From the IMG/VR virus record IMGVR_UViG_3300015607_003164: a DNA stretch of 63,252 nucleotides; one strand, written 5' to 3'. Numbering within the stretch: the first letter of the stretch is position 1; every line of letters starts with the position of its first letter. This stretch comes from an uncultured virus (IMG/VR IMGVR_UViG_3300015607_003164) (lineage: Duplodnaviria > Heunggongvirae > Uroviricota > Caudoviricetes). The notes under the pieces were generated by a model. That model had not been told where the DNA came from, did not search any database, and saw only the letters and a program-made list of their open reading frames with translations. This document shows positions 2,563-40,463 of this stretch, piece after piece. The position numbers and the translations under genes were made by a program.

Positions 2563-2814
2563 ATGCTAACAGAACAATCATTTCGTAACTATATTGAAAA
2601 GTTAGGTCATAAACCTGCTTCAACTCCTATGTGTGTTGAAAAGATAAACAAGTTAGCAAAGACAGGTCAATTAAACTTTGACTTTTATGTTAATCCTCAT
2701 AACCTATGTTGGTTTGCCGATGATAACTGGAAGCAGTATAATACAAGATTAACAAATGAGATATTCACTCTTAATATAAGAGATTTCAAATTAGCAGAGT
2801 TAAACATTATCTAA
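2563..2814 (+). CDS. Hypothetical protein, C-terminal tag RDFKLAELNII
   Basis: ORF after TATATTTG. Confidence 0.8.
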   Translation: MLTEQSFRNYIEKLGHKPASTPMCVEKINKLAKTGQLNFDFYVNPHNLCWFADDNWKQYNTRLTNEIFTLNIRDFKLAELNII

Positions 2815-3041
2815 TGTCAATTACTAAAAGTAAGTGGGTTTGTGTTGCTTGTAAGGTTCCAGGATCTGCTCAGTATCAAACTATTGGTAAAACCTATGAT
2901 GTTTCTGTTGAAGTATTATATGGTGAAGAAACTGCTTCTTTTACAGGTGATGATGGTCATGAATATTTATTCTTTAGAGCTGATGAAGACTTTATACCAT
3001 TAGAAGAATGGCGTGATAAACAATTAAATAAAATACTATGA
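2814..3041 (+). CDS. Small beta-rich family protein, C-terminal tag RDKQLNKIL
   Basis: CV..TIGKTY..DDG motif shared with neighbours. Confidence 0.8.
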   Translation: MSITKSKWVCVACKVPGSAQYQTIGKTYDVSVEVLYGEETASFTGDDGHEYLFFRADEDFIPLEEWRDKQLNKIL

Positions 3042-3346
3042 AATATAAATCATTTGCACCCAAGGTTGATGAAAAACGTAGATTAGTATTAACTCGTTTT
3101 TATGTTGGTGTTAAAGACTCAAATAACTTTTGTTATAAAGTAGAACGTATTACTAAAAAAGGTACTGTTGATAAACGATTCAAATCTTTATTTGCTTTTG
3201 GTACAGATGACTTTTCTTCTGTGAAAGAATTCAAACATAGTCTTACTGGTGAAAAGGTTAAAGTATTTAAAAAGCCATTCAAATCTGTGTTTGGTGTTAA
3301 AGAAGCAAAAGCTGAAACTGTTTGGAGGGCAAACTTAAAACTATGA
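3038..3346 (+). CDS. Basic hypothetical protein
   Basis: ATGA overlap with both neighbours. Confidence 0.8.
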   Translation: MKYKSFAPKVDEKRRLVLTRFYVGVKDSNNFCYKVERITKKGTVDKRFKSLFAFGTDDFSSVKEFKHSLTGEKVKVFKKPFKSVFGVKEAKAETVWRANLKL

Positions 3347-3570
3347 AATTAGTAGCCATTCAACCAATTAGTTATGTGTTCCATGTGTTACAAATGGGTA
3401 AGATATATGAAGGTGAATTAACACCTACTATATATGATCCTCAAACACTTAAACCAGCGGAACCTTCTTATATCATTAAATGTGATGATGGTAAATATCG
3501 TAAGTTTATGGCTAAACACTTTATCACTTTAGAAGAATGGCGTGAAAGACAATTAGATAAGATATTATGA
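3343..3570 (+). CDS. Small beta-rich family protein, C-terminal tag RERQLDKIL
   Basis: ATG at 3343 overlaps the upstream stop. Confidence 0.8.
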   Translation: MKLVAIQPISYVFHVLQMGKIYEGELTPTIYDPQTLKPAEPSYIIKCDDGKYRKFMAKHFITLEEWRERQLDKIL

Positions 3571-3779
3571 AAATGATATGTGTAAATAATATCTACCACG
3601 AAACGGAATTAACTATTGGTAAGATATATGATTTTCAGAAAATGACCGATGGTGACGATAGTGCTTATCTTATCACCAATGATTTAGGTGAACCTTGGGT
3701 ATTTACAAGTATTGCTGATAGAAGCCGTTTTCAAACATTGGAATATTGGAGAGAAAAACAATTAAATAAGATATTATGA
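3567..3779 (+). CDS. Small beta-rich family protein, C-terminal tag REKQLNKIL
   Basis: MKMICV..LTIGKIY..NDLG. Confidence 0.8.
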   Translation: MKMICVNNIYHETELTIGKIYDFQKMTDGDDSAYLITNDLGEPWVFTSIADRSRFQTLEYWREKQLNKIL

Positions 3780-3988
3780 AAGTAGTTTGTATTAAACATT
3801 TTAAGTCTCAAGGTTTTCAATATGAACTTACATATGGTAAAGTATATGAATCATTGTCTAAACCTGATTGGGCAGATAGTGAATCATATTTTATTGAATG
3901 TGATAGAGGGTTTATCAGTGTTTATAATAAAAATTCATTTATCACTTTAGAAGAATGGCGTGAAAGGCAATTAGATACGATATTATGA
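3776..3988 (+). CDS. Small beta-rich family protein, C-terminal tag RERQLDTIL
   Basis: MKVVCI..LTYGKVY..CDRG. Confidence 0.8.
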   Translation: MKVVCIKHFKSQGFQYELTYGKVYESLSKPDWADSESYFIECDRGFISVYNKNSFITLEEWRERQLDTIL

Positions 3989-4314
3989 AATTGATACTTG
4001 ACCTAACTAAAGAAGATAATGATATAATTATTAATCACCTTTATAAATATAATAAAGGTGTAGAAACTCACATGAAAATGGCAATGGATTCCTATGTTGA
4101 TGCTTTAGAGTTTGTAGAAGATGATATTATATTTCATAATACAAGAATTAATCCTATTTTAGGTGATGGTATCACAGAAGATAATGTTGGTAAGAGTAAT
4201 GGTGAAATAGGTGCTAAAACATCAATAAAGCTTTCCCAATTTGAAAAACCGTATAATGATATTTTTTATGCTGCTGTTAGAGAAATTAAACTAAGCAGAC
4301 TTATAGAAACTTAG
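3985..4314 (+). CDS. Hypothetical protein, C-terminal tag REIKLSRLI
   Basis: Last gene of + operon. Confidence 0.8.
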   Translation: MKLILDLTKEDNDIIINHLYKYNKGVETHMKMAMDSYVDALEFVEDDIIFHNTRINPILGDGITEDNVGKSNGEIGAKTSIKLSQFEKPYNDIFYAAVREIKLSRLIET

Positions 4315-4809
4315 TGACATAAACTGAAGGTGATAGTTCTCTTTAATAGCCCAAAATAAATTACCCTTAGTTATTGGATGTTCTGGTCTTTGAAAATCAT
4401 CTTGATGTCCTTCGTGACCACACTTATCACATTTCCAACTTTGCATTGAATGTAAATCATCTGGTGGTGTTATACTTTCACTATCACATTCTGGACAAGC
4501 TTCATGATATTCCCAATTACTATTTTCAAAATAAGAGTTTTTACCTAAACTAAATCCTTCTGATTCTAAATAAGAGAAAAGGTGTTCAAATATTAAATCC
4601 ATATCTTTAAGTTTGAATGTTTCCCACTGGTCACCTAATTCAACTTTTACTACATCTACAAAGGTTTCTTCATTTAGAATCTTAGCACCTTTATAACCAT
4701 ATACTCTGTACTTAATATCTTTATCAGATACTTCAAGTAAGATGTCTTTACACTCACTTATTATATTATCAATATTACTTGATTCATTAAATCGTTTTAA
4801 GTATTTCAT
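4291..4809 (-). CDS. N-tagged protein of the DILLE family with Zn ribbon
   Basis: MKYLKRFNES; CPEC...CDKC. Confidence 0.85.
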   Translation of the reverse strand: MKYLKRFNESSNIDNIISECKDILLEVSDKDIKYRVYGYKGAKILNEETFVDVVKVELGDQWETFKLKDMDLIFEHLFSYLESEGFSLGKNSYFENSNWEYHEACPECDSESITPPDDLHSMQSWKCDKCGHEGHQDDFQRPEHPITKGNLFWAIKENYHLQFMSLSFYKSA

Positions 4810-4824
4810 ATTGTATATATTAAA

Positions 4825-5214
4825 TTACCAAGTAAGACCAAATCCTCGCCAGATGTTAAGATTGATATGATATAATTCTTCACCTTTGAACTCTTCTATA
4901 AATTCATCCATTGGACAATAATCATCTGAGTTAGGTATTCCTATATCAATAGAAAAATTAGTCATCTTTAAATATTCTTTTAATCTTAAAAGAACATCCA
5001 TTATTTCTTCTAATCTAAAGAATCTGTTTTTACCATCTTTTATACTAACTTGAAAACAATTATAAGGATTTATACCATCTTTATAATATTTAACATCTTT
5101 AATAGAATATTCGATTCCATAGTCTGGTAATTCAAGTAGTATATCTTGAATATCCAATCTAACCTCAGCATCTCTAACTATCTTAGACTCATTAAATCGT
5201 TTTAAGTATTTCAT
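4825..5214 (-). CDS. N-tagged protein of the DILLE family
   Basis: MKYLKRFNES; DIQDILLELPDYG. Confidence 0.85.
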   Translation of the reverse strand: MKYLKRFNESKIVRDAEVRLDIQDILLELPDYGIEYSIKDVKYYKDGINPYNCFQVSIKDGKNRFFRLEEIMDVLLRLKEYLKMTNFSIDIGIPNSDDYCPMDEFIEEFKGEELYHINLNIWRGFGLTW

Positions 5215-5696
5215 CTTCTTTTTCTTATTATTAATCTTAATCTAACCATTTCAATATCAAATAATGGCTCAGGTCCTCTTTCTTGAAAGTTAATTCTTGG
5301 ATCTAAGTTAGCAATATAAGCCATATCTTTAGCTACATAATTTCCTGACTTATTTAAAACAAGACCATCAACATCCCATATTTGATAACCATGCTCTTTA
5401 AGATAACCACTACACATAACAATACTATCTAAAACATCTCTTAATACAAATTGAGGCCCATAGTTACCACGTTCATATTCGGTTAGCAAATGTTCTACAT
5501 CCTCACCCCATTGTTTTTTAATCATTACATTATAGGAAAAGACTTTATCTCTTGAAGCAGAAGAATAATTAGGTTCAACTGTAACATCAAATCCTTCATC
5601 CTGTAACTCTAAGAATAATTCTTTAATTACTTCTTGTATCTCAGAATCTTCTGATTCTGATTCAAATAGTTTAGTATAGGTTTTTATATGTTTCAT
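5211..5696 (-). CDS. N-tagged protein of the DILLE family
   Basis: MKHIKTYTKLFES; ELFLELQDEG. Confidence 0.85.
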   Translation of the reverse strand: MKHIKTYTKLFESESEDSEIQEVIKELFLELQDEGFDVTVEPNYSSASRDKVFSYNVMIKKQWGEDVEHLLTEYERGNYGPQFVLRDVLDSIVMCSGYLKEHGYQIWDVDGLVLNKSGNYVAKDMAYIANLDPRINFQERGPEPLFDIEMVRLRLIIRKRR

Positions 5697-6348
5697 AATC
5701 TAAATTAATATATTCTTCTATTGATTGTCTTGTGACATCATCTTTTATTCGTTTAACAGGTGGTGGTAACTTTCTCAAAAATCTAATAAAGCTTTCATCT
5801 CCTATTATCTTGGCTTTATTATATAACATATCTATATCTTTTTGAGATAACTTATCATATCTTATTCTATTTTTTATATCAGCTATTTTATTTCTTTTTT
5901 CAATTTTTATATTAGTCTCTATTTCAGCTTGTTTAAATATCTCTCTAGACTCTTCTGGTGTAATATCATAATCTTTAAGTGATATAAAAGGTGTAAGACC
6001 TTCAAATTTATTTTGCCATTCATCTATAAATACCAGTATTGTGGTACATAGTGTATCATAATCGTCTTTAATCATATCACTACATTTCCAATCTACCTTA
6101 TTACTTTCTAATCTTTCTAAACATTCTTTTCTTAAATTATCTATAGAAAATATATCTTTACTTAACTTAGGATCACCATCTAAATTAAAAGTTATGAAAG
6201 TACCAATACCTGGTTTATCTATTTGTAGAAACGCATCTTCATAGCTATAGGTTAAATCAAAGTCAATATGTTTTAACTCTTCAGTTAAAGCATCAATGAA
6301 GTTATTTATATTGCTTTCAAATAGTCTATATGTCTTTAAGTATCTCAT
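5671..6348 (-). CDS. N-tagged hypothetical protein
   Basis: MRYLKTYRLFES. Confidence 0.85.
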   Translation of the reverse strand: MRYLKTYRLFESNINNFIDALTEELKHIDFDLTYSYEDAFLQIDKPGIGTFITFNLDGDPKLSKDIFSIDNLRKECLERLESNKVDWKCSDMIKDDYDTLCTTILVFIDEWQNKFEGLTPFISLKDYDITPEESREIFKQAEIETNIKIEKRNKIADIKNRIRYDKLSQKDIDMLYNKAKIIGDESFIRFLRKLPPPVKRIKDDVTRQSIEEYINLDYETYKNLY

Positions 6349-6352
6349 AATA

Positions 6353-6844: not shown

Positions 6845-6845
6845 A

Positions 6846-7421: not shown

Positions 7422-7469
7422 ACCTTATATATTAAATAAACATAATTAAAAGTAATATCTATAATTAAT

Positions 7470-7841
7470 ATGAAGGAAATACTTGATGAATTAAAGTCGT
7501 GTCTTTATGCAATGACTTATGGCACCGGTGGTATGGGTGCTAATAAAGATTTTGAAACTTGGTTATTACAAAGTAACTGTAGTAAAATAGGTCCTTATCT
7601 GAAAGAAGATAGATTTATTAATATGCGTCAAGAAGTTGTTTATACTTCACTTGAGGAAATATTTGATGTGCTTATGAAATACCCACAAGCTGATTACTTT
7701 TGGTATAGTTATAATGGTGGTCAATTAACTTGGGTAGAACCACATCAAGATGAGGTGCCTTCTGATTCGTTAAGAGTAGATAAAGAAAAGATTACAGTGT
7801 TTTTAAGGAATGTTAAGTTAAATTATTTACTTAGGGTATAA
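7470..7841 (+). CDS. Hypothetical protein, C-terminal tag RNVKLNYLL
   Basis: ORF after AAAC-N18-TATAA. Confidence 0.8.
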   Translation: MKEILDELKSCLYAMTYGTGGMGANKDFETWLLQSNCSKIGPYLKEDRFINMRQEVVYTSLEEIFDVLMKYPQADYFWYSYNGGQLTWVEPHQDEVPSDSLRVDKEKITVFLRNVKLNYLLRV

Positions 7842-10502: not shown

Positions 10503-10763
10503 ATGATTGTATTCAACACCATAAAAAAAGCCGAACATTACGTCAAGTTCTGTAATAAGACTAAAGACTATTATAATGATGGCTATGATTGGTCTGAACA
10601 ATGTACCTATATAGATGGCAACTTAGTTAAAATAAGAAATGCCGGTGATGGCTGTGGTTGCGGCTGTGATATGCATCTTTATAATTACACCACAGTAATA
10701 GGCAGAATTAAAGCCTATGATCAGAAAACAATAAGACACCAAAAGTTAAAGAATATACTTTAA
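10503..10763 (+). CDS. Hypothetical protein (GCGCGC motif), C-terminal tag RHQKLKNIL
   Basis: ORF. Confidence 0.8.
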   Translation: MIVFNTIKKAEHYVKFCNKTKDYYNDGYDWSEQCTYIDGNLVKIRNAGDGCGCGCDMHLYNYTTVIGRIKAYDQKTIRHQKLKNIL

Positions 10764-12624: not shown

Positions 12625-12939
12625 GAAAATATGTCACCTGACATGGACGAAGACCTAGAAGAATACCTGGGTATTAACGACCATGTAACCTTTATAGATG
12701 GTGAGCCTATTATCTTTACCAGATATGAGAATGATAGTGACGAACCACGAATCGGTGGATACCCAGATACAATCATCCGCTCAGCAGATGAAATGTTTAA
12801 AGCTATGCAGACAGGTCTAACCAACTGGGAAAACAAACACTTCCACTTTCGCTGGGAAAAAGAAAGAGAAGAACATATTAAGAACCATATTATAACCTTC
12901 TTCCAAAAGTACCCAGATGGTATCATAGAATTTGGATAA
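12625..12939 (+). pseudogene. 3' part of split gene (ENMSPDMDEDLEE...GIIEFG)
   Basis: Composition matches the 11769-11918 flank. Confidence 0.65.
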
Positions 12940-16016: not shown

Positions 16017-16264
16017 TGTTCGTCATCATAATAGTTTTCATCATCAAATGGTTTATTATCCCATTCTTCTCTTTCAGTGAATTCGTTTATATCGGGTATT
16101 ATTATGTAAATAAATACTTTATTATGTTCTTTAATAAGACGTAGGTCACCGTAGTATGAGTATTCATCTTCTGCTTTCTTTTTCCAGTAGTCGTATATTT
16201 TATCGAAGTGTTTATTAAATAGAGAGGCTTTTTCCCATCCTATTTTTCTAACTTTATCCGCCAT
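16013..16264 (-). CDS. Hypothetical protein
   Basis: ORF overlapping the rmlC start. Confidence 0.75.
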   Translation of the reverse strand: MADKVRKIGWEKASLFNKHFDKIYDYWKKKAEDEYSYYGDLRLIKEHNKVFIYIIIPDINEFTEREEWDNKPFDDENYYDDEQ

Positions 16265-16524
16265 TTATTATATGGTTTATTTTTACTTGTCTTATGTTTA
16301 TGATTATCTCTTGTATAAGTTGTTCAGTTTCTTTAGGTGAATGGCTAACAGATTTAGGATTTAATCTATATTCTTGATGGTTATTAAGAGTATCATTTAT
16401 TATTATTGTAGGAGCCATTGTTTTACTATCGTATTCTGTTTTGATGGTGAAACGAGGTTTATATCAGTTAGTTTTTCGTGTTCGATCATAAATTTTATAT
16501 GAAAGAATTTATATATAGTTTTAT

Positions 16525-16897: not shown

Positions 16898-17146
16898 ATG
16901 AAACTTGTATCAAGGTTAATATCAATAATTAAGAATCTTAGGAAAAAGGTAATAGAGCCAAAGTTAGGTGATTGGGTTGTTTCTAATAAGAATGTTTATG
17001 GTGCTTATCATCATTGTAAAATAACTCGTATTTATTATCGTAATCATGAATGGCATTCAGTTGAAAAGTTTTGTCAATTAAAGTTTGATGTTGCTGGTCA
17101 AGTAAAAACAATTAATGTTCCTTTTAAATCTTGTAGGTTATTATGA
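16898..17146 (+). CDS. Hypothetical protein
   Basis: ORF. Confidence 0.75.
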   Translation: MKLVSRLISIIKNLRKKVIEPKLGDWVVSNKNVYGAYHHCKITRIYYRNHEWHSVEKFCQLKFDVAGQVKTINVPFKSCRLL

Positions 17147-17439
17147 CTATCTATTATTTAGAGGTTATAAAAGATGGGCTTAGTATTTGTTTAGATACAG
17201 ATGTTAGGTATTATCACTTTTTTGAATTAGGTGATATTATAAAGATTCATATGTATTCTGATAAAGGACCTAAAGTTGTATTTGGTGATCGTGTTGAGTA
17301 TGATGCCGAATTTACAAAAGATTGGGATAAAACAAATAGTGTTAGGCTAACGATTGTTGGTTGTATCAGTAAAGGTTATTTAGTAGATATAACTAATATG
17401 GTTCATCGTCAAGAAAAATTGGCACAATTAGGTATATGA
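17143..17439 (+). CDS. Hypothetical protein, tag RQEKLAQLGI
   Basis: ORF. Confidence 0.8.
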   Translation: MTIYYLEVIKDGLSICLDTDVRYYHFFELGDIIKIHMYSDKGPKVVFGDRVEYDAEFTKDWDKTNSVRLTIVGCISKGYLVDITNMVHRQEKLAQLGI

Positions 17440-17551
17440 GACGTTTAATTCAAAAGTTATTCTTTTTCTTTTCTTTTTTCAAATTCAAGAAAAAACGCAA
17501 AAGCATCTGGGATTTATAAAAATAATCCTTATCTTTGTCTATATTCATAAT

Positions 17552-18040
17552 ATGGACTTAATCTATAAAATTTACTCAGTTTATTTATACGACAATGGGT
17601 TAGCACATGACTGGGTGTTTTTCTATAATCGCACGAAAGGTTTTACTGGTGAAGTAAAGTGGGATGCGCCATATACAATGTTTGGTTCATCTAGTTTTTG
17701 TGCTAATAATCAGATATTTAATATGGATAAGTCACAACCGGATTTCAATGAAATGTCGGTTCGTGTTATGAAGTCAGCAGCGCAATCAGAAGGCATTGAT
17801 TTGATAAGAGTAAAAGACTTTCTTATTTTAGAAAAGATTGGTACTACTCATATGCCTAATTATAATGCTTATCAGATTTTGTGGAATGAAACTAAATCTG
17901 GTTTTAATCCTCATCAATTTGAGGTGATGGGTGTTTGGAGAGAAGGTAGTTCTCAGTATTCATCTTATCGTATTTGGGAAGAGGTGGCAGAGCGTGAGAA
18001 AACTATTCGTGATAATAAACTAAAATTGTTGGGAGTATGA
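17552..18040 (+). CDS. Hypothetical protein, tag RDNKLKLLGV
   Basis: ORF after TATCTTTG 17530. Confidence 0.85.
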   Translation: MDLIYKIYSVYLYDNGLAHDWVFFYNRTKGFTGEVKWDAPYTMFGSSSFCANNQIFNMDKSQPDFNEMSVRVMKSAAQSEGIDLIRVKDFLILEKIGTTHMPNYNAYQILWNETKSGFNPHQFEVMGVWREGSSQYSSYRIWEEVAEREKTIRDNKLKLLGV

Positions 18041-18324
18041 CACAGATTAATCCAGTAGAAGGTAGTGGTTTTTATCTAACAATAGTTGATAAAGATTTTA
18101 AATACATTCGATGTAATAAAGATTATCAGAACAAGTTTGCTAATGGTTTAACCTATCGTTATAAGTTTAGTGAGCATAATGAAACAGGTATTGGTGTTTA
18201 TGTTGTTTATACTAACAATGAGATACCAGAGGCTCACAGTTATTTTACTAAGAAATCATTGGCTGAGTATTTTGATGTGACAGCAATATTTAGAGAAGAG
18301 AAATTAAATATTTTAGGAATATGA
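18037..18324 (+). CDS. Hypothetical protein, tag REEKLNILGI
   Basis: ATGA-coupled ORF. Confidence 0.8.
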   Translation: MTQINPVEGSGFYLTIVDKDFKYIRCNKDYQNKFANGLTYRYKFSEHNETGIGVYVVYTNNEIPEAHSYFTKKSLAEYFDVTAIFREEKLNILGI

Positions 18325-18587
18325 CATTAGAAGAGTTAAAGACTTTGAGAAGAGGTGAAGTTGTTGTTTTAACTAAGGTAGATAAATTGATAACTGAGTA
18401 TCATAATTATCAAGTAGGCACTGAATTGGTGTTTTATCAATTTGATACTAATACAGATCATGTTGATTTTGTGAGAACATCTGGTGAGTATATGGCAGTT
18501 TCACATTTCTCATATGAGATTTGCGATTATATAGAGCGTAAAGTAAAATTAGAAAGAAATAATAAATTAAATTCTTTAGGAATATGA
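18321..18587 (+). CDS. Hypothetical protein, tag RNNKLNSLGI
   Basis: ATGA-coupled ORF. Confidence 0.8.
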   Translation: MTLEELKTLRRGEVVVLTKVDKLITEYHNYQVGTELVFYQFDTNTDHVDFVRTSGEYMAVSHFSYEICDYIERKVKLERNNKLNSLGI

Positions 18588-18955
18588 TAATAGTAAAGAT
18601 TTTTCAGGTTGTAGTTGTTTTGGCTGTTTTGCTTACTATGGTGGGTATTCTTTGGAACTTCATCAAAGAAACTAGAGTTCATCGTAAGCGAATGAATAAA
18701 TTAAATCAGTGGTCTAAGTTTCATCAGCAGTTGATGAATTGGTCAAGAGAAATATCAGATATGGGTGTTCGTGTTGATTTTATGAATTTTTGTTCTAATG
18801 AGTTAATTAAACAATCTAATCATAATTTGAAAAACGATATGTTAGATAATTGGGATATTGATGAAGAAAAGATGAAGATATACCGACGTTGGGGTAATCA
18901 CATACCTTCACTTTTACAAGAAGTTAGAGAAAAGAAGTTAAATAGTATATTATAA
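18584..18955 (+). CDS. Membrane-anchored protein, tag REKKLNSIL
   Basis: N-terminal TM helix. Confidence 0.8.
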   Translation: MIIVKIFQVVVVLAVLLTMVGILWNFIKETRVHRKRMNKLNQWSKFHQQLMNWSREISDMGVRVDFMNFCSNELIKQSNHNLKNDMLDNWDIDEEKMKIYRRWGNHIPSLLQEVREKKLNSIL

Positions 18956-19341
18956 TGGATATTAAGACACCAGAATTTGGTCAGCATTTTTTATCACAAT
19001 TTTCAAGTGATGTAACTAAGTATGATTATACAGTAGTACCTAAAGAAAAAAACCCTTTAGGACATAAAGGCATTACTTTACTCATTTATGATGGTAAGTA
19101 TAATGTTAAACTTTTGTATAATGATTTATGTTTAGTTTTTTTAATTGAAGATGGTTATTATCAGTATATCAATCATCAGGTTCCTTATGATTCTTTAAGT
19201 CAAGCTCATTTTGATTATATAAACGATATGATACTTTACTTTAAATCACATGAAAAGAAGTTATCTGAAATGATAACCGGGTTTGGTGTTAAATTACCAA
19301 TTAATTATATTAGACAACAAAAATTAAATACTTTGGTATGA
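18955..19341 (+). CDS. Hypothetical protein, tag RQQKLNTLV
   Basis: ORF. Confidence 0.8.
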   Translation: MDIKTPEFGQHFLSQFSSDVTKYDYTVVPKEKNPLGHKGITLLIYDGKYNVKLLYNDLCLVFLIEDGYYQYINHQVPYDSLSQAHFDYINDMILYFKSHEKKLSEMITGFGVKLPINYIRQQKLNTLV

Positions 19342-19628
19342 CAATAGAAGAAATGATACAAAAGTGTCCAGACTTGGTTAAAATCACTGCTTCTGCTATG
19401 AATGAAGTGGCTATTAAGATTACTGGTGAGTCATTAAATTTCAATAAGACTTATGGTGAAATGGGTTTTGATGATTTGGATTGTGTTGAAATGATTATGG
19501 AGTTAGAAAAGAAATTAGATATTCATATCACTGATGAAGTAGCAGATGCTTTTGTTAATGGTAAGAATAAACCATTCAATGTTAGTCAATATAATCGTAA
19601 TAAAAAGATAGAAGATTTGGGGTTATAA
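19338..19628 (+). CDS. Acyl carrier protein-like, Ser replaced by Asp; tag RNKKIEDLGL
   Basis: MGFDDLDCVEMIMELEKKLDIHITDEVA versus ACP LGADSLDTVELIM.FEK.FDI.IPD..A. Confidence 0.8.
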   Translation: MTIEEMIQKCPDLVKITASAMNEVAIKITGESLNFNKTYGEMGFDDLDCVEMIMELEKKLDIHITDEVADAFVNGKNKPFNVSQYNRNKKIEDLGL

Positions 19629-20017
19629 TGGGAGTTCAAAAGGAATATAAAGATTATAAGATTGTTCGCCATTCTTGGTGGAAGTTCTGGCAGGTTGATG
19701 AAATAGAATTTACTTTACCAACTCAGTATAGTGATGCTTATGAAGAAGTTGAGAAGAAGTTAATCAATGGTACTGAGTGGTCAATGGTTTTAAGTTCTTG
19801 GGTTATTGAAGATGTTCGTGAGCAATTGACTATGAGAGTTTCAACTTACGATAAGTTAGTTAGGAAGGCTAAGAAGTTGAAGGTTAGATTTGGTACAAGT
19901 GAATCAGGTCAGAGATTTAGTGATTGTATGGATTTTTATATTATTGATGGTGGTATTTACTTTGATATTGATGATGCTATTAAGCGTGAGAAGTTATTAA
20001 ATAAATTGGGTATATGA
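19628..20017 (+). CDS. Hypothetical protein, tag REKLLNKLGI
   Basis: ORF. Confidence 0.8.
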   Translation: MGVQKEYKDYKIVRHSWWKFWQVDEIEFTLPTQYSDAYEEVEKKLINGTEWSMVLSSWVIEDVREQLTMRVSTYDKLVRKAKKLKVRFGTSESGQRFSDCMDFYIIDGGIYFDIDDAIKREKLLNKLGI

Positions 20018-20247
20018 ATTGGTGTAAGGTAACTGGACATAAGTGGCAGTATTATAAACAAGGAGCTCCTCATATTATGTCTTCTGGATATAAGTTTATG
20101 GTTGATACTGAGTTTAGGCTTTGTGTAAAGTGTTTTACTAATCAAATGAGAGTGGCTCATTCTAGCAGTGATAAAATAGATTGGAGAGAATGCGAGTTAA
20201 GTGTAGATCAGTTAAGAGATAAAAAGTTAAAAGAGTTAGGTATATGA
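20014..20247 (+). CDS. Small Zn-binding protein (C..GHKW..RLCxxC), tag RDKKLKELGI
   Basis: Paralog of next gene. Confidence 0.8.
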   Translation: MNWCKVTGHKWQYYKQGAPHIMSSGYKFMVDTEFRLCVKCFTNQMRVAHSSSDKIDWRECELSVDQLRDKKLKELGI

Positions 20248-20474
20248 ACTGGTGTTTAATAAAACATAAGTGGGAGTATAAGAAAGAAGATATTTTTTAT
20301 GAAAGAGTATCAATAGGTAGTTTCTTAACAAAGGGTGTAACTATGCCAACTGACGTTAGGCTTTGTAAAAGATGTCATAAGAAACAAAGGTTAGGAATGA
20401 GAAGCTATTGGATAGATTGGGATTTGACTAAAGAAGAAGAAAGAGATATTAAGTTAAGAGAAATAGGTATATGA
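20244..20474 (+). CDS. Small Zn-binding protein (C..HKW..RLCxxC), tag RDIKLREIGI
   Basis: Paralog of previous gene. Confidence 0.8.
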   Translation: MNWCLIKHKWEYKKEDIFYERVSIGSFLTKGVTMPTDVRLCKRCHKKQRLGMRSYWIDWDLTKEEERDIKLREIGI

Positions 20475-20779
20475 TACCAGAAGTAGGAGATAAATTTATT
20501 ATTAACTGGAAAAAAGTTTCGGCTGTTTATCCAGGTATAAAGATTTGTAAGTTTCCCTATTTAGAATTTACAATAGATTCTTTCAGTAAGTCTAAGTTAT
20601 CTGTTTATTTTATAGATAAAAGAACAAATAAAAAGTGTAGTTGTACTTATTGTGATAAGGTGTTACACGGTAAGAATATAAAAGAAGGCGCTAAATCAAT
20701 AGGTGTTACTGATATCATTATCACTCAGAAAAAGTTAGCAATTGAAAGAAGTAGAAAGTTAAAAGAATTAGGATTATGA
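20471..20779 (+). CDS. Hypothetical protein, tag RSRKLKELGL
   Basis: ORF. Confidence 0.8.
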   Translation: MIPEVGDKFIINWKKVSAVYPGIKICKFPYLEFTIDSFSKSKLSVYFIDKRTNKKCSCTYCDKVLHGKNIKEGAKSIGVTDIIITQKKLAIERSRKLKELGL

Positions 20780-21165
20780 GTTCTTGGCGAATAATTAGAA
20801 AACTAAAACCAATGGAACTATTTGATATAGTTACCAGGGGTTTGTGTGATCATCATTTGCCGGAAATCACCAGACAGATTGTAGAGTTAAAAGGTGAGTG
20901 GTCACTTAACAACTGGAGTAAAGAGTTTAAGTTGGATATCTTAAAGATTTATTTATCTGAAACAGGATTTCAACTATACACTACGAGGGAAGAAGCAGAA
21001 GCTTTAGAAAAAGAATTTAGATCTTGGAATGTTTTTTACCAAGTTTGGTCTCGTTGGTATGGTGGTTCAACTTACATCGTTGGATTTCAGTATGATGATG
21101 AAGCGTTCATGACTTTATATAATGAGTGGTTAAGAGACAAAAAGTTAGGTGAATTAGTAAATTAG
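20776..21165 (+). CDS. Hypothetical protein, tag RDKKLGELV
   Basis: ORF. Confidence 0.8.
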   Translation: MSSWRIIRKLKPMELFDIVTRGLCDHHLPEITRQIVELKGEWSLNNWSKEFKLDILKIYLSETGFQLYTTREEAEALEKEFRSWNVFYQVWSRWYGGSTYIVGFQYDDEAFMTLYNEWLRDKKLGELVN

Positions 21166-21179
21166 TTATATCTTTGCGT

Positions 21180-21446
21180 ATGTTATTGAAGTGTATTAAA
21201 ACTGGTGGTTATCATTTAACGTTAGGTAAGAACTATCAAGCAGAGGTTTGTTCGGATGCACCGAGTGAGTTTCGTCCGGGTAGTCAAGTCTTTGATTATT
21301 ACATTGTCAATGATAAGGGACACCGACACGGTATTGAAGCGAGTTTATTTATTCGTGTTGATGAACTAAGAATTAAGAAATTACAAAGATTAGGTATATT
21401 CAAACTGAGATGGCGCCACTTCATTGTGTCTTGTAATGGAATTTAA
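21180..21446 (+). CDS. Small beta-rich family protein, tag RIKKLQRLGI with read-through tail
   Basis: LKCI..LTLGKNY..NDKG. Confidence 0.75.
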   Translation: MLLKCIKTGGYHLTLGKNYQAEVCSDAPSEFRPGSQVFDYYIVNDKGHRHGIEASLFIRVDELRIKKLQRLGIFKLRWRHFIVSCNGI

Positions 21447-21672
21447 ACAAGGAGATATTGTTCAAGTAAAGAACTTCGCACCTTTTGATTTTTGTGGAAA
21501 AGTGTGTGGACAATCAACAAATAAGCAACCTATATTAGGTATGGGTTATATCATTGAGTTAGCACAACCTTTGATTGACTATCCTTATTCTCATATTATT
21601 GCTTATGAGTGTTATATGACTAAAGTTGATACGGTGATTATTAATCCTGATTTGCAAATATTTTCTATATAA
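21436..21672 (+). CDS. Hypothetical protein (untagged)
   Basis: MEFKQGDIVQV. Confidence 0.75.
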   Translation: MEFKQGDIVQVKNFAPFDFCGKVCGQSTNKQPILGMGYIIELAQPLIDYPYSHIIAYECYMTKVDTVIINPDLQIFSI

Positions 21673-22214
21673 TGGATTTACAAGTACATAACGAAGAAAG
21701 AGATATTAGACTACAAGAGTGGTTGAAAGAAGTATCTACGATTTCTACTGAACGTGTTAGTCAGAAGGTAGAAGGTGATTACTTAACGCAGTGGGATGAA
21801 GATTCTTATCATGTGGTTCATTATGTAGATGGTCGAGTTGAAAAGACTTTGGTTAATAAAAAGAGACCGTCGGTAATGTTGAAGCACGTTGAAAAGGTGT
21901 TTAATGATTGGGACTTACCATTAAATATCGATGGTGTGAAATCTCTTAGACTTAAAGAGGTAAGATCTTTTAGTCAGAGGTTTATCTTTGGTGATTCTTG
22001 GATTACGGTTTATATGAATGACATTCATCAAGATATGTTATCTGATGATGCTTTTGGTCGTTGGTATAAATATGAGGATGGTATGTTAGAAGTTGAGCAT
22101 CAAGTTGTGAAGTTAGAAGAGTGGATAGCTTCTGTTATTTTGAATCAAGCAAAGAAATATCCAAGTGATGTACAATTACAAAGAAGTATTAAATTGAAAT
22201 CTTTATTGAAGTGA
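21672..22214 (+). CDS. Hypothetical protein, tag RSIKLKSLL
   Basis: ORF. Confidence 0.85.
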   Translation: MDLQVHNEERDIRLQEWLKEVSTISTERVSQKVEGDYLTQWDEDSYHVVHYVDGRVEKTLVNKKRPSVMLKHVEKVFNDWDLPLNIDGVKSLRLKEVRSFSQRFIFGDSWITVYMNDIHQDMLSDDAFGRWYKYEDGMLEVEHQVVKLEEWIASVILNQAKKYPSDVQLQRSIKLKSLLK

Positions 22215-22555
22215 TGGAGCCTCATGTTTTAATTAGAAAAATAGAGGATAGGATTCTTTATAAAATATCTGAAGGTTGCTCGATTGAGGAATTGATTGAG
22301 TACTTTACTGGTGTTGTTGATACCTGTCAGAACCGTCGCACATATATCAATGTTGGATTAAGATATTTAATTAACAACTGGAAGTTTATTGACCCTAATA
22401 AGAAAATGAACACACTTTATGTTATTTTTTTAAGAAAGAGACTAAAAGACTTGAAGTGGTTAGTTGAGAATAAACATAAGTTTCCTCACTTAGAAGGTGA
22501 AAAACTTTATAGAGTTTTAAGGCTAAAAGATATATTAGGATATGAAACTAAATGA
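22211..22555 (+). CDS. Hypothetical protein, tag RVLRLKDILG
   Basis: ORF. Confidence 0.8.
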   Translation: MMEPHVLIRKIEDRILYKISEGCSIEELIEYFTGVVDTCQNRRTYINVGLRYLINNWKFIDPNKKMNTLYVIFLRKRLKDLKWLVENKHKFPHLEGEKLYRVLRLKDILGYETK

Positions 22556-22871
22556 TACAAATCAATTTATAAAAGACAGTTTTCAAGACATCTTAGATGG
22601 TAAGTTTGATGATAAGTTTTCATCAGATCAATTAAAAATGATGTTAGAAATGTCATTTTTATTTAATCATATTACTTTTGAGTTAGACTCTATTTTATTT
22701 GAGTATGTTGGTCAGAAATTAAAATTTTCAGGTATTAATGATCTTATACAATCAATGCCATTTGGTCCTGGAGAAGACCAAATATTTTCTATGATTAGAG
22801 GTGAGAGTGTATTTAAGTCGGCTTATACTTCTTTTCTTAGAGATATAAAGATTAACAACTTATTAGAATAA
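22542..22871 (+). CDS. Hypothetical protein, tag RDIKINNLL
   Basis: Last gene of operon. Confidence 0.8.
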   Translation: MKLNDTNQFIKDSFQDILDGKFDDKFSSDQLKMMLEMSFLFNHITFELDSILFEYVGQKLKFSGINDLIQSMPFGPGEDQIFSMIRGESVFKSAYTSFLRDIKINNLLE

Positions 22872-24170: not shown

Positions 24171-24851
24171 ATGTACACAATAAACCAAAGATTCGAATTT
24201 TTAGACCAACTTGCTAACATGGTAATTAATGGTGACACTCCGTCACTTATTGTTACTGGTGAAGGCGGGTTAGGTAAAACACACGCCATCACACAGGCAA
24301 TATTAAATTCAGATTTGATATCTGATGATTATGTTTTCATTAAAGGTTATTCAACCGCTCGTGGGTTATATAATGCTCTATATGATAATAACAGTCGATT
24401 GATTATTTATGACGACTGTGATTCTATCTTAGAAGATAAAGTAGCACTAAATATTTTGAAGTCTGCTTTAGACTCTTATGAAAGACGTACAATTACTTGG
24501 GCTGCTCGAATGAACCGTAACGATGAATATCCTCAGCAATTTGACTTTACTGGTCGCATCATCTTTATTTCTAACAAGTCTAAAGAAAGTATGAATGAAG
24601 CATTGCTTACTCGTAGCTTGACTGTTGATTTAACTATGACTCCAGATGATAAGATTACTCGTATGGGTTCTATCTTGACTTCAATAATGCCAGAGTATGA
24701 TATTCAAGCTAAGTTAGATGCTCTTAACTTCTTGAATGAAGTTAAAAATGAAGTTAGTCTTAATATCCGTATGTTGATTATGGTTACTAAGATGCGTGCT
24801 TCTTACCCATCTAACTGGAGAGATATGGCAAAATATATGATTAAAGGATAA
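24171..24851 (+). CDS. AAA+ family ATPase
   Basis: Walker A GEGGLGKT; Walker B IIYDDCD. Confidence 0.85.
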   Translation: MYTINQRFEFLDQLANMVINGDTPSLIVTGEGGLGKTHAITQAILNSDLISDDYVFIKGYSTARGLYNALYDNNSRLIIYDDCDSILEDKVALNILKSALDSYERRTITWAARMNRNDEYPQQFDFTGRIIFISNKSKESMNEALLTRSLTVDLTMTPDDKITRMGSILTSIMPEYDIQAKLDALNFLNEVKNEVSLNIRMLIMVTKMRASYPSNWRDMAKYMIKG

Positions 24852-25192
24852 TGAGTACTTTTGGAAACAAGGCGTTAATATGGTGGGACTATCACACTCG
24901 TGATAGAGCCGCCTTATTGCGCTTTAACTCCACTCCTAAAGATATACAAATTAAAATCTTAGAGAAGTGGTATCCAATTGGTATGAAAGTGGGATTGGGT
25001 CCTGATAAATATGACTATGAAATTGTTGAATACATTCAACACTTTACTTATTGGAGTGTTAGAGTTGAGATGCATGCTCCAGATAGTCTTATGCATAAAA
25101 TGCAATCTGAGAGAAATCCACTTGGATTGTGGCCCTCACCATATTGGGAAAAACAACTTAAACGTCAATATAAATTAGACAGACTTTTATGA
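24851..25192 (+). CDS. Hypothetical protein, tag RQYKLDRLL
   Basis: ORF. Confidence 0.8.
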   Translation: MSTFGNKALIWWDYHTRDRAALLRFNSTPKDIQIKILEKWYPIGMKVGLGPDKYDYEIVEYIQHFTYWSVRVEMHAPDSLMHKMQSERNPLGLWPSPYWEKQLKRQYKLDRLL

Positions 25193-25416
25193 AAGAATCG
25201 GAAATGACTGATATGAATATACATGAGAGTAGAGATTTTGTGGTTAAACACAGACCGATTTGTTGTGGTAAGCAGGTTGATACAATGGGTTACCAAATAA
25301 CAAATAGTTATCAGTACTTTGTTTGTAGAGGTTGTGATAAACAAATTCAAATTCAGTATTGGCCCTTGACTTTTGAAACTATGAGAGACTTAAAGATAAA
25401 TAGTATTTTATGTTAA
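25189..25416 (+). CDS. Small Zn-ribbon protein, tag RDLKINSIL
   Basis: CCGK...CRGC. Confidence 0.8.
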   Translation: MKESEMTDMNIHESRDFVVKHRPICCGKQVDTMGYQITNSYQYFVCRGCDKQIQIQYWPLTFETMRDLKINSILC

Positions 25417-25734
25417 GAGTATCACTAAATATAGGTGGTGGTAATGGTGCTTATAATTATGTACCGATGTTTTATGAGTTTGAGAACGCAAGAGGTTTTA
25501 CTGATTTTATTCGTGACCAGATGTTTAATATTATTCTTTGGTCAAGTTGATGATTTGAACTCACAAGAAGAATGGATTTCATTTCTCAAGAATAATCAAC
25601 CTGATTTTGAAACATATCTAAAAGAAAGAGATATGAATAATAAGCGTAATGAAATGAAACAAATCTTTGGTGACTTAATGAGTGAGGTTATTTCTGAAGA
25701 TAGAAATAATAAGTTAAATAAATTAGGTATATGA
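25410..25734 (+). pseudogene. Frameshifted gene, tag RNNKLNKLGI
   Basis: MLRVSLNIGGG... (25410-25550) stops; a plausible C-terminus continues in another frame. Confidence 0.55.
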
Positions 25735-31484: not shown

Positions 31485-31588
31485 AGTAATTTATATATTA
31501 AATTTATTTTGGTAAAAACCAATTTCTGTATATATTAATAATTAAACATTCAAACTTTATTTTCATATAAAACAAAAAATATATTTTT

Positions 31589-32732: not shown

Positions 32733-32733
32733 G

Positions 32734-36603: not shown

Positions 36604-36687
36604 TTGATATTACTATGTTTTAGAGTATATATTTTTATTTGAATTAAAAAATATGGATTATTGGTAATTGTTTATTATATTTGTGTT

Positions 36688-36936
36688 ATGAATTTACCAA
36701 ATTCTATACCTCATAGTATAAATTGTCCTTCTTGTATGCCTTCAGGTCTTAATTGGAAAGAACAATTGGCTGAACTTGAGTGGCAGGTGGATAATTCTGG
36801 CTATTTTTATTTATCTTACTATTGTAAAAACTGTACGAATGGTTGGACAACAAATGATTCTGATGAAATATCATTGAGGCAAAGAAAAATTAAAAAAAGA
36901 AGTCTATTAAGAAAAGATAAAATAAAAAAAATATGA
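36688..36936 (+). CDS. Zn-ribbon protein, tag RKDKIKKI
   Basis: CPSC...CKNC; promoter at 36676. Confidence 0.75.
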   Translation: MNLPNSIPHSINCPSCMPSGLNWKEQLAELEWQVDNSGYFYLSYYCKNCTNGWTTNDSDEISLRQRKIKKRSLLRKDKIKKI

Positions 36937-37950: not shown

Positions 37951-38394
37951 ATGGAAGTGGCAGTATTAGTATTGTCTATTACAATATTAGTTAGTTTAAT
38001 TTTTATAGGTGTTTTATATTCAAAGAATATAAATTTACAGAAAGAATTATCTAAAATGAAATCAGAGGTTGAAAAAGTAAATCAAGCTCAAGAAGAACTT
38101 GTATCTATTGATACAGGTGACAGAGCCATCTTGCCAGATTATGGATTACAACACACAGATACAAAAGAAAGCTTCAGTGTTACTTATGAGATTGAAATAT
38201 TAGAGGTTTCAATTGATAAAGTAAAAGTAAAGGCAATTGATTTTACTTCAACTGATAAATTTGCTAAAGATCCTAAAAACAAATCCGCAATTATTAACTT
38301 CCTACAAGATAAGTGGGTTAATAAAAAAGATATAGAATTAATCGTTGATGATTCAATGAGAAGAGATCGTAAACTTAAACAAATTTTATCATAA
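37951..38394 (+). CDS. Membrane-anchored protein, tag RDRKLKQIL
   Basis: N-terminal TM helix. Confidence 0.8.
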   Translation: MEVAVLVLSITILVSLIFIGVLYSKNINLQKELSKMKSEVEKVNQAQEELVSIDTGDRAILPDYGLQHTDTKESFSVTYEIEILEVSIDKVKVKAIDFTSTDKFAKDPKNKSAIINFLQDKWVNKKDIELIVDDSMRRDRKLKQILS

Positions 38395-38659
38395 TGAGTG
38401 TAGTAGAGTCTTTAATTTCAGAACAAAACCAATATGATTTGTTCTACAATATTTTACTTTCAGTGAAAAGTCAATAAAATGTTCGGTAAAATGGACGAAA
38501 TGGCTGAATCAGGTATTTCAATGCTTGAACCAATCAAAGGATGTTACCAAAGAATCTTAAAGAACATCTTCGCAAGAAATATTCTAAAGAACTATCTGAG
38601 GTAAAAGAAATTATTCACAAACGAAAATACTCAATTAAATAATAACTAAAATAACAAAT

Positions 38660-39430
38660 ATGAATTACGGAACAGAATTTAAAAAGTACGCAACTAAACA
38701 TCTTGGACTAAACGATGGTCTTGTTGATAGTTTTACAAATGGTTTAACACCATACATCTTAGAAGAACGTGAAATGAGAGCAACTCAAATTGACGTATTC
38801 TCACGCTTGATGCGTGACCGTATCATCTGGGTTTCAGGTCCAGTTGATCAACATATGTCTGATATTGTTCAGGCTCAGTTACTCTTCTTGGACTCAACTG
38901 AGAAGAAGGATATCTCACTTTACATTAACTCACCAGGTGGTTCTGTATTATGTGGTTTAGGTATTGTTGATTTGATGAACTATATCAAATCTGACATAGC
39001 AACTATTAACATCGGTATGTGTGCTTCTATGGGTTCTATTCTTCTTTCATCTGGAACTAAAGGTAAGCGTTCATCTTTGATTTATTCAAAGGTAATGACA
39101 CACCAAGTTTCACATGGTACTCAAGGTAACGTACAAGATACTCGTATTAATCAAATGGAAGCTGAAAAGTATAACTACATTCTTTTCAAAATGTTGGCTA
39201 ATAACTGCGGTAAAACATTTGATGAGGTATTGGAGTTTTCTCGTAGAGACCGTTGGTACAACTCAGATGAAGCATTGAAGTTTGGTCTAATCGATGAAGT
39301 AATTGGACTTGATGAAAAATCAAGCAATTCAATCACTTCTATGTTGGATGGATTTGATGAATATTATCAAAAAGAAATACTACAAGTTCCAACAACTGGT
39401 AGTGATTCTAAGAAATCTACAAAGAAGTAA
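38660..39430 (+). CDS. clpP: ATP-dependent Clp protease proteolytic subunit
   Basis: DVFSRLMRDRII, YINSPGGSV, CASMG, MTHQ, RDRW..EALKFGLIDEV. Confidence 0.95.
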   Translation: MNYGTEFKKYATKHLGLNDGLVDSFTNGLTPYILEEREMRATQIDVFSRLMRDRIIWVSGPVDQHMSDIVQAQLLFLDSTEKKDISLYINSPGGSVLCGLGIVDLMNYIKSDIATINIGMCASMGSILLSSGTKGKRSSLIYSKVMTHQVSHGTQGNVQDTRINQMEAEKYNYILFKMLANNCGKTFDEVLEFSRRDRWYNSDEALKFGLIDEVIGLDEKSSNSITSMLDGFDEYYQKEILQVPTTGSDSKKSTKK

Positions 39431-39447
39431 TTCTTTCTGTAAGAATC

Positions 39448-39478
39448 AAAACCCATCAAGTAATTGATGGGTTTTTTT
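39448..39478 (+). terminator. Intrinsic terminator
   Basis: AAAACCCATCAA-GTAA-TTGATGGGTTTTTTT. Confidence 0.85.
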
Positions 39479-39510
39479 GTTTATTGATATTTATTTCTTA
39501 TCTTTGTAAA

Positions 39511-39804
39511 ATGAATATGAATAAGATAGTAATCAATGAACTATTCGAGAAAGGTAAATACTTATCGAATGGTATTGTTATGATCAAATTCTTAGAATCT
39601 AAATCTAATGGTTTTCTTTTTGCTGTTTCTTCTAAGAAATTCAAAAGAGCAGTTGATAGAAACCGTATTAAAAGATTGATGAAAGAATCAGTTAGAAACT
39701 TAAATATCAATAATAAAAATATCGCTTTTGTTTATATCGGTGAAGGTGTTCCAACTTTTGTCGATGTTAATGAGAGTGTTACTAAACTAATTTCTAAACT
39801 ATGA
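39511..39804 (+). CDS. rnpA: Ribonuclease P protein component-like
   Basis: LFEKGK..FAVSSKKFKRAVDRNRIKRLMKES (RNR motif); own promoter at 39499. Confidence 0.85.
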   Translation: MNMNKIVINELFEKGKYLSNGIVMIKFLESKSNGFLFAVSSKKFKRAVDRNRIKRLMKESVRNLNINNKNIAFVYIGEGVPTFVDVNESVTKLISKL

Positions 39805-40463
39805 AGTTAAACTACGATCTAATTAAAAAGAACTTAGCAACTTACGCAGAAGCAAAAGAAGTATTTCCCATTATTTCCGAGTATGAAGTAGGTCAAGTCA
39901 ATTATTCTGTAATGGCTAAGTTAGGACTTGGTGACTTCGCCTTATTTGCCAACTTCTTAGATGCTAATTTCAAATCTGGTTTTAACCCAGTGATGAAAGG
40001 TATGACTTGGCGCAGGTTGAAACATCTTTTAGTTGAACATACTAAAAATGAAAGATTTAAGAAATTTATTTTTAATAGAACTCAACGTCAGTTTAACGAG
40101 ATATTAAATGATGGTTCAGACTTTGATAGATATCTAAACGGTCGATGGATTACTAAACCAGGTACTTCTCGTAGTGGTCGCAGAACACACGGTCGTAGAA
40201 GTCACGAACATATTGAAAGTTTTAGAAGTTGTATAGTTCCAATACTTAACTACATCATTGAAAACAATATTGATGTTTATGATGATTCAAAAGATTATAA
40301 AGAATACTATAACTTTTTCAAGTATCAACAAAATATTGAATCTACTCTTCGTTGGTATATTACAAAAGAATTAGATTTTTCAAATGTACCAAAGCGTGAG
40401 ATTGAAGTTGAAAAGTCTAAGCAAAAGTACCGTAGAAGAAAGAACTTAGATAATATCATCTAA
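39801..40463 (+). CDS. Hypothetical protein, tag RRKNLDNII
   Basis: ORF. Confidence 0.85.
   Translation: MKLNYDLIKKNLATYAEAKEVFPIISEYEVGQVNYSVMAKLGLGDFALFANFLDANFKSGFNPVMKGMTWRRLKHLLVEHTKNERFKKFIFNRTQRQFNEILNDGSDFDRYLNGRWITKPGTSRSGRRTHGRRSHEHIESFRSCIVPILNYIIENNIDVYDDSKDYKEYYNFFKYQQNIESTLRWYITKELDFSNVPKREIEVEKSKQKYRRRKNLDNII

Follow-up and report, generated by a model that had tools for sequence, protein, structure and literature searches.

The stretch of DNA analysed here (the window) comprises 63,252 nucleotides from an uncultured virus of the Caudoviricetes (IMG/VR record IMGVR_UViG_3300015607_003164), and it encodes many small proteins that share one short peptide at the C-terminus, hereafter called the C-tag. 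Roughly one in five proteins of the window carries it, most of them small early proteins. The C-tag was found to be a real element that is selected as a peptide, is borne by many unrelated bodies, goes with early promoters, faces the cytoplasm and is restricted to phages. An earlier note on this DNA had described the shared tail and proposed an amphipathic docking helix read by one partner; the observation was confirmed and the interpretation was supported in part. In our judgement it is an even bet that the C-tag is a portable docking helix on early cytoplasmic proteins with one conserved partner, which is probably a host component. We infer both the existence of one common reader and its host origin. 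New in the present analysis are the association with promoters, a second tag at the N-terminus, the mutual exclusion of the two tags, a control with prokaryote genomes, a test of translational coupling and an argument from membrane topology. No published description of the C-tag was found in a literature search of titles and abstract openings.

The gene set of the window was a crude one (122 open reading frames (ORFs) of at least 40 amino acids, 19,419 residues), and all 32 ORFs listed in the earlier note were translated. The expression R..[KQ][LI]..[LI], required to begin in the final 14 residues, matched 27 of the 122 ORFs. The earlier note had named shuffling as a check on the shared tail, and 2000 residue shuffles gave a mean of 0.14 matches and a maximum of 3. 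Internal matches numbered 6 in the 19,419 residues. The list of 32 carriers stood for the most part, since 26 matched the expression, whereas the ORFs starting at 19628, 21180, 22211, 33383, 34568 and 39801 did not. ORF 19628 has a variant that is one residue shorter (REKLLNKLGI), the tag is degenerate at best in 22211, 34568 and 39801, and the nucleotidyltransferase ORF 33383 was without it by translation and regular expression. Likewise, the claim that 16 of 17 ORFs in 17143-22871 are tagged holds only loosely, with 13 of 17 strict matches and three more loose ones.

A 555-amino-acid protein of the window showed 40% and 25% identity to two uncultured phages of 634,780 and 642,428 bp; the window thus belongs to a huge phage, a relative of LR745206.1 (635 kb). 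Huge phages with genomes of about this size have been described as the "Mahaphage" group. No close phage record for the window was detected by megablast against 50,697 phage records. In the whole LR745206.1 record, 94 of 990 ORFs matched the expression and 135 matched a scoring matrix derived from the tags. When the matrix was applied to the window and LR745206.1 pooled (1,112 ORFs), 182 matches were obtained compared to 1.85 in shuffled proteomes. By distance to the end of the protein, 133 of these lay within 12 residues, 29 at 13-20 residues and 20 were internal.

The 121 tags of the window and LR745206.1 were aligned on the Arg, taken as position 1. Hydrophobic residues were found at -4 and -1, Leu or Ile at positions 5 and 8 and Leu, Gly or Ile at position 9, with 0-3 residues behind the last in this alignment. 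Position 4 was Lys in 110 tags and Gln in 11, and position 2 was Asp, Glu or Asn in 98 (53, 25 and 20, respectively) and Gln in 4. Positions 8-9 read Ile or Leu, then Leu or Gly, with Phe in 6 tags; Gly stood at position 9 in 28. The resulting pattern of about 13 residues is h-x-x-h-R-[DEN]-x-K-[LI]-x-x-[LI]-[LG], where h is hydrophobic, followed by 0-4 or more residues. Plotted on a helical wheel, the invariant Arg and Lys lie, as we read the logo, within the hydrophobic face.

Synonymous variation of the tag codons, on which the earlier note had relied, is real: the tag Arg codons in the window were AGA 19, CGT 7 and AGG 1, and the Leu and Lys codons roughly tracked genome usage. In 22 ortholog pairs, synonymous differences at conserved residues were equally common in the tag (48 of 130) and in the bodies (428 of 1223; p=0.70), indicating selection on the peptide. 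Overall identity between orthologs was also similar (0.59 for the tag and 0.57 for the bodies), since R, K and L/I are retained and the x positions diverge. The earlier note had set this synonymous comparison for its view that the peptide is selected rather than a DNA or coupling signal; the comparison, the codon mix and the equal strength of uncoupled tags bear that view out. The A-rich codons and the tandem arrays of tagged genes might suggest a DNA boundary element (a recombination or regulatory site), an artefact of chance or composition, or one divergent paralog family. We assign a negligible probability to these, as synonymous sites were not conserved beyond background, shuffles and reversed-pattern controls gave near zero and 121 bodies formed 110 clusters.

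An effect on translation was also considered, in which the last ~10 codons or the nascent peptide would promote termination-reinitiation at an overlapping start in a host without Shine-Dalgarno use. Bacteroidota are described in PMC6847099 as such hosts. Stop/start overlaps (ATGA or TAATG) were enriched among tagged genes; the odds ratio was 7.5 for the window and 2.7 for LR745206.1. Gly at position 9 was commoner in coupled genes (14/52 vs 12/82), and its codon was GGA in 63% of tags vs a background of 31%. The use of GGA fits a tuning of the A at -3 of the next start, and A at this position is preferred in Bacteroidetes according to PMC6847099. There is, in sum, a weak nucleotide layer superimposed on the peptide selection. 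Against a role in translation, 49 of the 93 tagged genes of LR745206.1 were uncoupled, and 15 of those were operon-final, with the next gene on the other strand. Their tags were as strong: the median matrix scores were 20.6 for coupled and 19.8 for uncoupled genes (p=0.28), and 20.6 for 26 tags with an opposite-strand neighbour. The persistence of the tag on operon-final genes, as claimed earlier, was thereby upheld. Plus-strand examples in the window are 3985..4314 (tail REIKLSRLIET), whose next gene lies on the opposite strand, the uncoupled ORFs 7470..7841 (RNVKLNYLLRV) and 10503..10763 (RHQKLKNIL), and 22542..22871 (RDIKINNLLE), the final gene of an array. The distance from Arg to stop ranged from 9 to 20 residues with 0-10 trailing residues tolerated, and 20 matrix matches were internal. 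In LR756502.1, 11 of the 23 G-I endings used a TAA stop, mostly without an overlapping start, and TAATG was found in 2. The C-tag does not depend on an overlapping or abutting downstream start. Equal scores, variable stop distance and internal copies argue against a reinitiation or nascent-peptide signal, which we consider very unlikely to account for the tag.

The earlier note had called the tagged bodies unrelated. This was found to be so for nearly all of them, as the 121 bodies of the window and LR745206.1 fell into 110 BLAST clusters at E<1e-3, but not for two small paralog groups in the window. The first consists of 2814..3041 (WRDKQLNKIL, a Q variant), 3322..3570 (WRERQLDKIL, given the start 3343 in the earlier note), 3567..3779 (WREKQLNKIL) and 3776..3988 (WRERQLDTIL), and the second of 20014..20247 (RDKKLKELGI) and 20244..20474 (RDIKLREIGI), all on the plus strand. 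The number of clusters and the difference between two structure models (see below) are not those of a single paralogous family. Searches of the tagged proteins with PHROGs and Pfam matched almost nothing. Among the 80 longest, Pfam hits were found in 3, one of them on the doubtful match L023, and the lone hit above the cut-off on a firm tag was the HGTP anticodon-binding domain. No Pfam family matched more than one of 148 tails of 40 amino acids at E<=10. A half motif resembling Rho_N/SAP was tried and dropped because of a misfit in register and the lack of a Pfam signal. The tagged proteins had a median size of 105 amino acids (5-95% range 67-210) and were slightly more acidic than other small proteins (isoelectric point 5.25 vs 5.9). 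Among 155 homolog pairs involving a C-tagged protein, both members were C-tagged in 122 and one was untagged in 33, and no C-tag was paired with an N-tag. The tag is inherited with the body. One of the small phages described below (G003) encodes at L144:7651-8025, on the minus strand, a 124-amino-acid stand-alone anticodon-binding domain of class II aminoacyl-tRNA synthetases (HGTP_anticodon, E=1e-8) followed by the tag; it is among the very few tagged bodies of known fold.

The 147-amino-acid protein of ORF 37951..38394 (plus strand, tail RDRKLKQILS) has an N-terminal membrane helix and is a conserved core gene product for which 379 relatives were found. In this family R-D-R-K-L-[KQ]-[QK]-I was kept in the 120 tails read, one having Tyr in place of Asp. 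The AlphaFold2 (AF2) model of the family (predicted local distance difference test score, pLDDT, 74) placed a separate tag helix, 134-146, behind a small beta domain, with lower confidence for the helix. In the model for the family of ORF 20776..21165 (plus strand, RDKKLGELVN; pLDDT 84), the tag closes a long C-terminal helix, 108-128. A Foldseek search of the PDB gave no fold match for either model at E<=0.001. The amphipathic helix proposed earlier is supported by the logo and, as far as predictions go, by both models. A membrane helix was predicted in 11 of 162 tagged proteins and started at residue 1 or 2 in 9 of these. Lys or Arg preceded the helix in none of the 9 and followed it in 8, which by the positive-inside rule puts the tag in the cytoplasm.

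Two motifs were found upstream of genes, TAnnTTTG and TAATATATA, the latter near start codons. TAnnTTTG corresponds to the -7 box of the Bacteroidetes primary sigma factor as given in PMC6847099 and PMC9723704, and the Bacteroidota-type host assumed in the earlier note fits these promoters. In the window, TAnnTTTG boxes occur at 1250, 7893, 9223, 10794, 12955, 17530, 22966 and 24135. The TAATATATA motif lies 10-40 nt upstream of starts, at 4814-4822, 7426-7434, 31492-31500, 51623-51644, 54353-54361, 55830-55838, 58900-58908, 61284-61292, 62014-62022 and other positions; it precedes N-tagged and structural genes and is a candidate phage-specific (late) promoter. The second tag, M-K-[YH]-[LI]-K-x-[YF]-x-x-F-E-S (MKYLKxYxxFES), stands at the N-terminus of at least 9 of the 122 window ORFs and of 33 of the 990 ORFs of LR745206.1. 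The N-tagged regions of the window are 314-970, 4291-7421 (six tandem genes), 8124-8537, 27478-29148, 50223-52302, 54884-55798, 57221-57658 and 62047-62376. Gene runs behind TAnnTTTG contained 15 C-tags and 0 N-tags among 33 window genes, and 37 and 0 among 152 genes of LR745206.1, whereas runs behind TAATATATA contained 1 C-tag and 8 N-tags among 32 window genes, and 16 and 21 among 246 genes of LR745206.1; these counts express an association and not a map, as most runs carry neither motif and the chance rate of TAnnTTTG is, by our estimate, ~5% per region. No protein of the window or LR745206.1 carried both tags, in line with the earlier statement that N-tagged proteins lack the C-tag. We conclude that the C-tagged proteins are early and dependent on host RNA polymerase. 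The N-tagged proteins probably form a phage-promoter class of late and virion proteins.

The long tagged array at 17552-22871 lies behind TATCTTTG (17530..17537, plus strand), a host-type -7 box by the consensus of PMC6847099 and PMC9723704. All its ORFs are on the plus strand and were identified by translation and regular expression unless stated otherwise. Besides the genes already named, it contains 17552..18040 (RDNKLKLLGV), 18037..18324 (REEKLNILGI), 18321..18587 (RNNKLNSLGI), 18584..18955 (REKKLNSIL, with a predicted N-terminal membrane helix), 18955..19341 (RQQKLNTLV), 19338..19628 (RNKKIEDLGL, with an acyl-carrier-like body by Pfam), 20471..20779 (RSRKLKELGL) and 21672..22214 (RSIKLKSLLK). 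The shorter variant in 19628..20017 was seen in the translation and is kept in its ortholog. ORF 21174..21446, listed earlier with the start 21180, has an internal tag (RIKKLQRLGI, found with the matrix), behind which the protein runs on for another 16 residues in an overlap with the next ORF; this resembles a recent stop loss or frameshift. Internal or near-N-terminal tag copies also occur in LR745206.1, for example at 332300-332968 and 357716-358123.

The N-tag resembles the capsid-targeting sequence (CTS) of T4, with a Glu-Ser/Ala site similar to a cleavage site. The CTS is N-terminal and directs proteins into the prohead core, whereas the C-tag is C-terminal and stands behind host-type promoters. 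In the T-even phages, according to PMC3012670, the CTS is one short conserved address on diverse unrelated phage proteins, and in this respect it is like the C-tag. A T4-type CTS marks the N-terminus of late or virion proteins; 162 of the 182 matrix matches were C-terminal, and the C-tag was enriched behind host-type promoters and depleted behind TAATATATA. The N-terminal motif fills the CTS role, and the C-tag coexists with it in the same genome while excluding it from the same protein. No conserved x-x-E site was visible beside the C-tag in the logo of 121 tags. The C-tag might still load cargo into the procapsid, in the way of encapsulin cargo peptides or scaffold C-termini. Basic C-terminal helices bind coat proteins in several systems, and the peptides of microcompartments and encapsulins, like the C-tag, place an amphipathic helix or peptide at one end of unrelated cargo proteins; encapsulation peptides go with a shell gene. 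It has also been reported that huge phages pack many proteins (PMC7411985). The separation of the two tags into different promoter classes makes a capsid-loading role unlikely, and early timing argues the same way: the C-tagged genes stand behind host-type promoters, and a separate tag, MKYLKxYxxFES, is already present behind TAATATATA and never occurs with the C-tag. We regard virion loading as highly improbable.

The distribution of the C-tag was examined with the strict DNA pattern R-D-x-K-L-x-x-L-G-I-stop, with the reversed pattern as control. Three megaphage records contained 7, 23 and 13 matches, with 23 in LR756502.1, and no match to the control. The earlier note had pointed to related phages as a place to look for the tag, and it does recur in LR745206.1 and LR756502.1. 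In IMG/VR, the pattern was found in 67 stretches on 52 contigs, 12 of which were 170-483 kb long. A called ORF ended in the motif at 65 of the 67 loci, and some 8-kb loci contained 11-15 tagged ORFs among 22-29. In 596 Gb of prokaryote genomes, by comparison, 51 loci were obtained and an ORF ended in the motif at 3 of them, two of which belonged to one phage-like 4.2-kb contig, indicating that the tag is a phage feature and not a motif of host proteomes. Tagged genes cluster toward both ends of the linear LR745206.1 and LR756502.1 records. The tagged ORFs of LR745206.1 per 50-kb bin were 19, 11 ... 18 at the ends vs 2-4 across 100-250 kb, and 22 of the 23 strict matches in LR756502.1 lay within 4-20 kb or 585-636 kb.

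The C-tag reaches beyond the phage of the window, into a different lineage of phages of 31-37 kb. In three IMG/VR records of 31.0, 31.3 and 36.8 kb, with 40, 47 and 57 ORFs, the matrix detected 2, 3 and 4 C-terminal tags, respectively. Two of them have direct terminal repeats, and two were rated 100% complete and one 65%. These small phages are related to each other; BLAST between them and the megaphages gave only a few hits, weak or confined to domains, and none of them on tagged proteins. Their terminase showed 35% identity to cultured Parabacteroides and Bacteroides phages, and tblastn of a tagged protein of theirs against phage records gave no match. The presence of the tag in this second lineage makes a reader of host origin more plausible than a system private to one phage; since two lineages that share almost no genes use it, a component of the host is a likelier partner than a protein of the phage.

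One tag in two lineages with no evident shared reader gene favours either a host-encoded reader or self-association. In the latter case the C-tag would be a portable oligomerisation helix, tags would pair with tags and a separate reader would not be required, which would explain the same tag in unrelated lineages without a common reader gene. Judging from the logo, two antiparallel helices could be joined by reciprocal salt bridges between the Asp or Glu of position 2 and the Lys of position 4. We nevertheless judge self-association quite unlikely, as it is hard to see what promiscuous pairing among ~100 different early proteins would serve, and coiled coils do not usually have invariant Arg and Lys residues at the centre of their hydrophobic face.

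The position of the Arg and Lys of the C-tag, within the hydrophobic face, suggests a docking handle. Phages of Bacteroidota-type hosts would place the helix at the end of small unrelated cytoplasmic proteins made early from host-type promoters, and the helix would plug these early proteins into one conserved partner. Docking might result in recruitment, in inhibition of a host machine or in timed turnover. Several points weigh against this docking reading. No reader of the C-tag was identified in the present analysis, and the host is known only indirectly. The cultured Parabacteroides phage PM116P2 (related terminase, GC content 0.44), the sole cultured phage checked, was without the tag. The few genes shared between the two lineages were counted by BLAST, which might have missed a small reader gene common to both. 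In the 20776 model the tag forms the end of a long helix running on from the body, and it could be partly structural. The excess of stop/start overlaps, of Gly at position 9 in coupled genes and of GGA at this Gly, given above, also belongs here. A wider form of the docking reading, possible though doubtful, is that the C-tag is a common "early-protein handle" of Bacteroidota phages, from those of 31 kb to 0.6-Mb megaphages, by which ~100 fast-evolving host-takeover proteins per genome would be fed into a single conserved host machine, and which together with the CTS-like N-tag would form a two-label code sorting the proteome by infection phase.

Timed destruction was weighed as an alternative to docking. 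The C-tag would then be a degron by which early proteins are destroyed at the late switch by a Clp-type or other AAA+ protease, with phage ClpP and a host unfoldase. The phage has a full-length ClpP of its own, with an E-value of 1.6e-47 to cellular ClpP structures, in which Ser, His and Asp stand in what look like the expected sequence contexts. The tag marks the early class, stands at the C-terminus or close to it in 89% of matrix matches and is put in the cytoplasm by the tagged membrane proteins. It is also similar to AAA+ degrons and tethers (ssrA, MuA-type ClpX signals, the SspB XB peptide) in being a short C-terminal peptide for one machine. It differs from these signals in that it is predicted to be helical, tolerates 0-10 trailing residues, occurs in internal copies and has no ClpP link that we could find. 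An ssrA/ClpX degron is an unstructured extreme tail that is read by its final residues and free carboxylate, whereas the C-tag was helical in both AF2 models and, in one of them, continuous with the folded body. The connection to ClpP proposed in the earlier note did not hold beyond genomic co-occurrence: the ClpP gene lies apart from the tagged genes in LR745206.1, and no ClpP homolog was found in the three small tag-bearing phages (BLAST, E<1e-3). As stated earlier, ClpP, HU, the RmlC-like protein, Gmk and DHFR are without the C-tag (window gene set, Pfam). On balance we consider a degron unlikely.

A neighbouring AAA ATPase (43774-44859, minus strand) with an N-terminal domain of ~190 amino acids was considered as the tag reader or ClpP partner. 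The pore loop of unfoldases is an aromatic-hydrophobic-Gly motif between Walker A and B. Neither this loop nor Arg fingers were seen, and the candidate was dropped; the missing pore loop also speaks against the degron. A PDB sequence search and the ESM Atlas gave generic AAA matches only. The protein ends in E-F-G-L and its LR745206.1 ortholog in K-I-G-F. This C-terminal [IF]-G-[FL] is reminiscent of the ClpP-docking tripeptide of Clp ATPases, and may be a coincidence. A reading of the L-G-I ending of the C-tag as a ligand of the ClpP pocket was dropped as well, since only 28 of 121 tags have the Gly.

Clamp-binding tails offer another comparison. In T4 gp43, gp33 and gp55, in the PIP box (Qxx[LIM]xx[FY][FY]) and in the beta-clamp motif (QL[SD]LF), many proteins reach one hub through one short motif, in most cases at the C-terminus, and the C-tag spacing [DENQ]-x-x-[LI]-x-x-[LI]-[LG] mimics that of the PIP box. 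In contrast to the clamp motifs, which have Gln with an aromatic pair or an L-F ending, the C-tag has no aromatic pair and rarely Gln at position 2 (4/121). In addition, ~100 small early orphans per genome exceed any clamp clientele known to us.

Small orphan proteins without a family that share one handle make up 10-15% of a megaphage proteome. Should this handle have a single partner, the target of ~100 unknown proteins per genome could be identified in one pull-down with a 13-residue peptide, and a host hub attacked by very different Bacteroidota phages could come to light. The C-tag could also supply a portable tag for directing proteins in Bacteroidota. From the pairing of C-tag and N-tag behind different promoters, it would seem that these phages mark their proteins according to the phase of infection.

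The remaining tagged ORFs of the window lie outside the long array. On the plus strand, translation and regular expression gave 2563..2814 (RDFKLAELNII), 17143..17439 (RQEKLAQLGI, kept in orthologs), 24851..25192 (RQYKLDRLL), 25189..25416 (RDLKINSILC), 25435..25734 (RNNKLNKLGI) and a weak match in 36661..36936 (RKDKIKKI). An ORF absent from the earlier list was found by regular expression at 16254..16418 on the minus strand (tail RQVKINHIINGG). At ~12579-12926 there are undetermined bases, and the translation of the minus-strand ORF has XX close to its end. Pfam matches in the window included the full ClpP, HU, Hc1, an RNase P protein, GIY-YIG endonucleases, a baseplate wedge and others. The GIY-YIG homing endonucleases lie at 52299-53378 and 55843-56628, and TnpB/IS605-type gene fragments with an HTH_OrfB_IS605 domain and a Cas12f1-like TNB domain at 32210-32860 and 58661-58885. 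Unusual phage cargo was seen in a tyrosinase central-domain protein (31589-32170), a homolog of the RNase P protein component (39484-39804) and a chlamydial-type histone-like Hc1 (42036-42251); Hc1 showed 76-94% identity in relatives.

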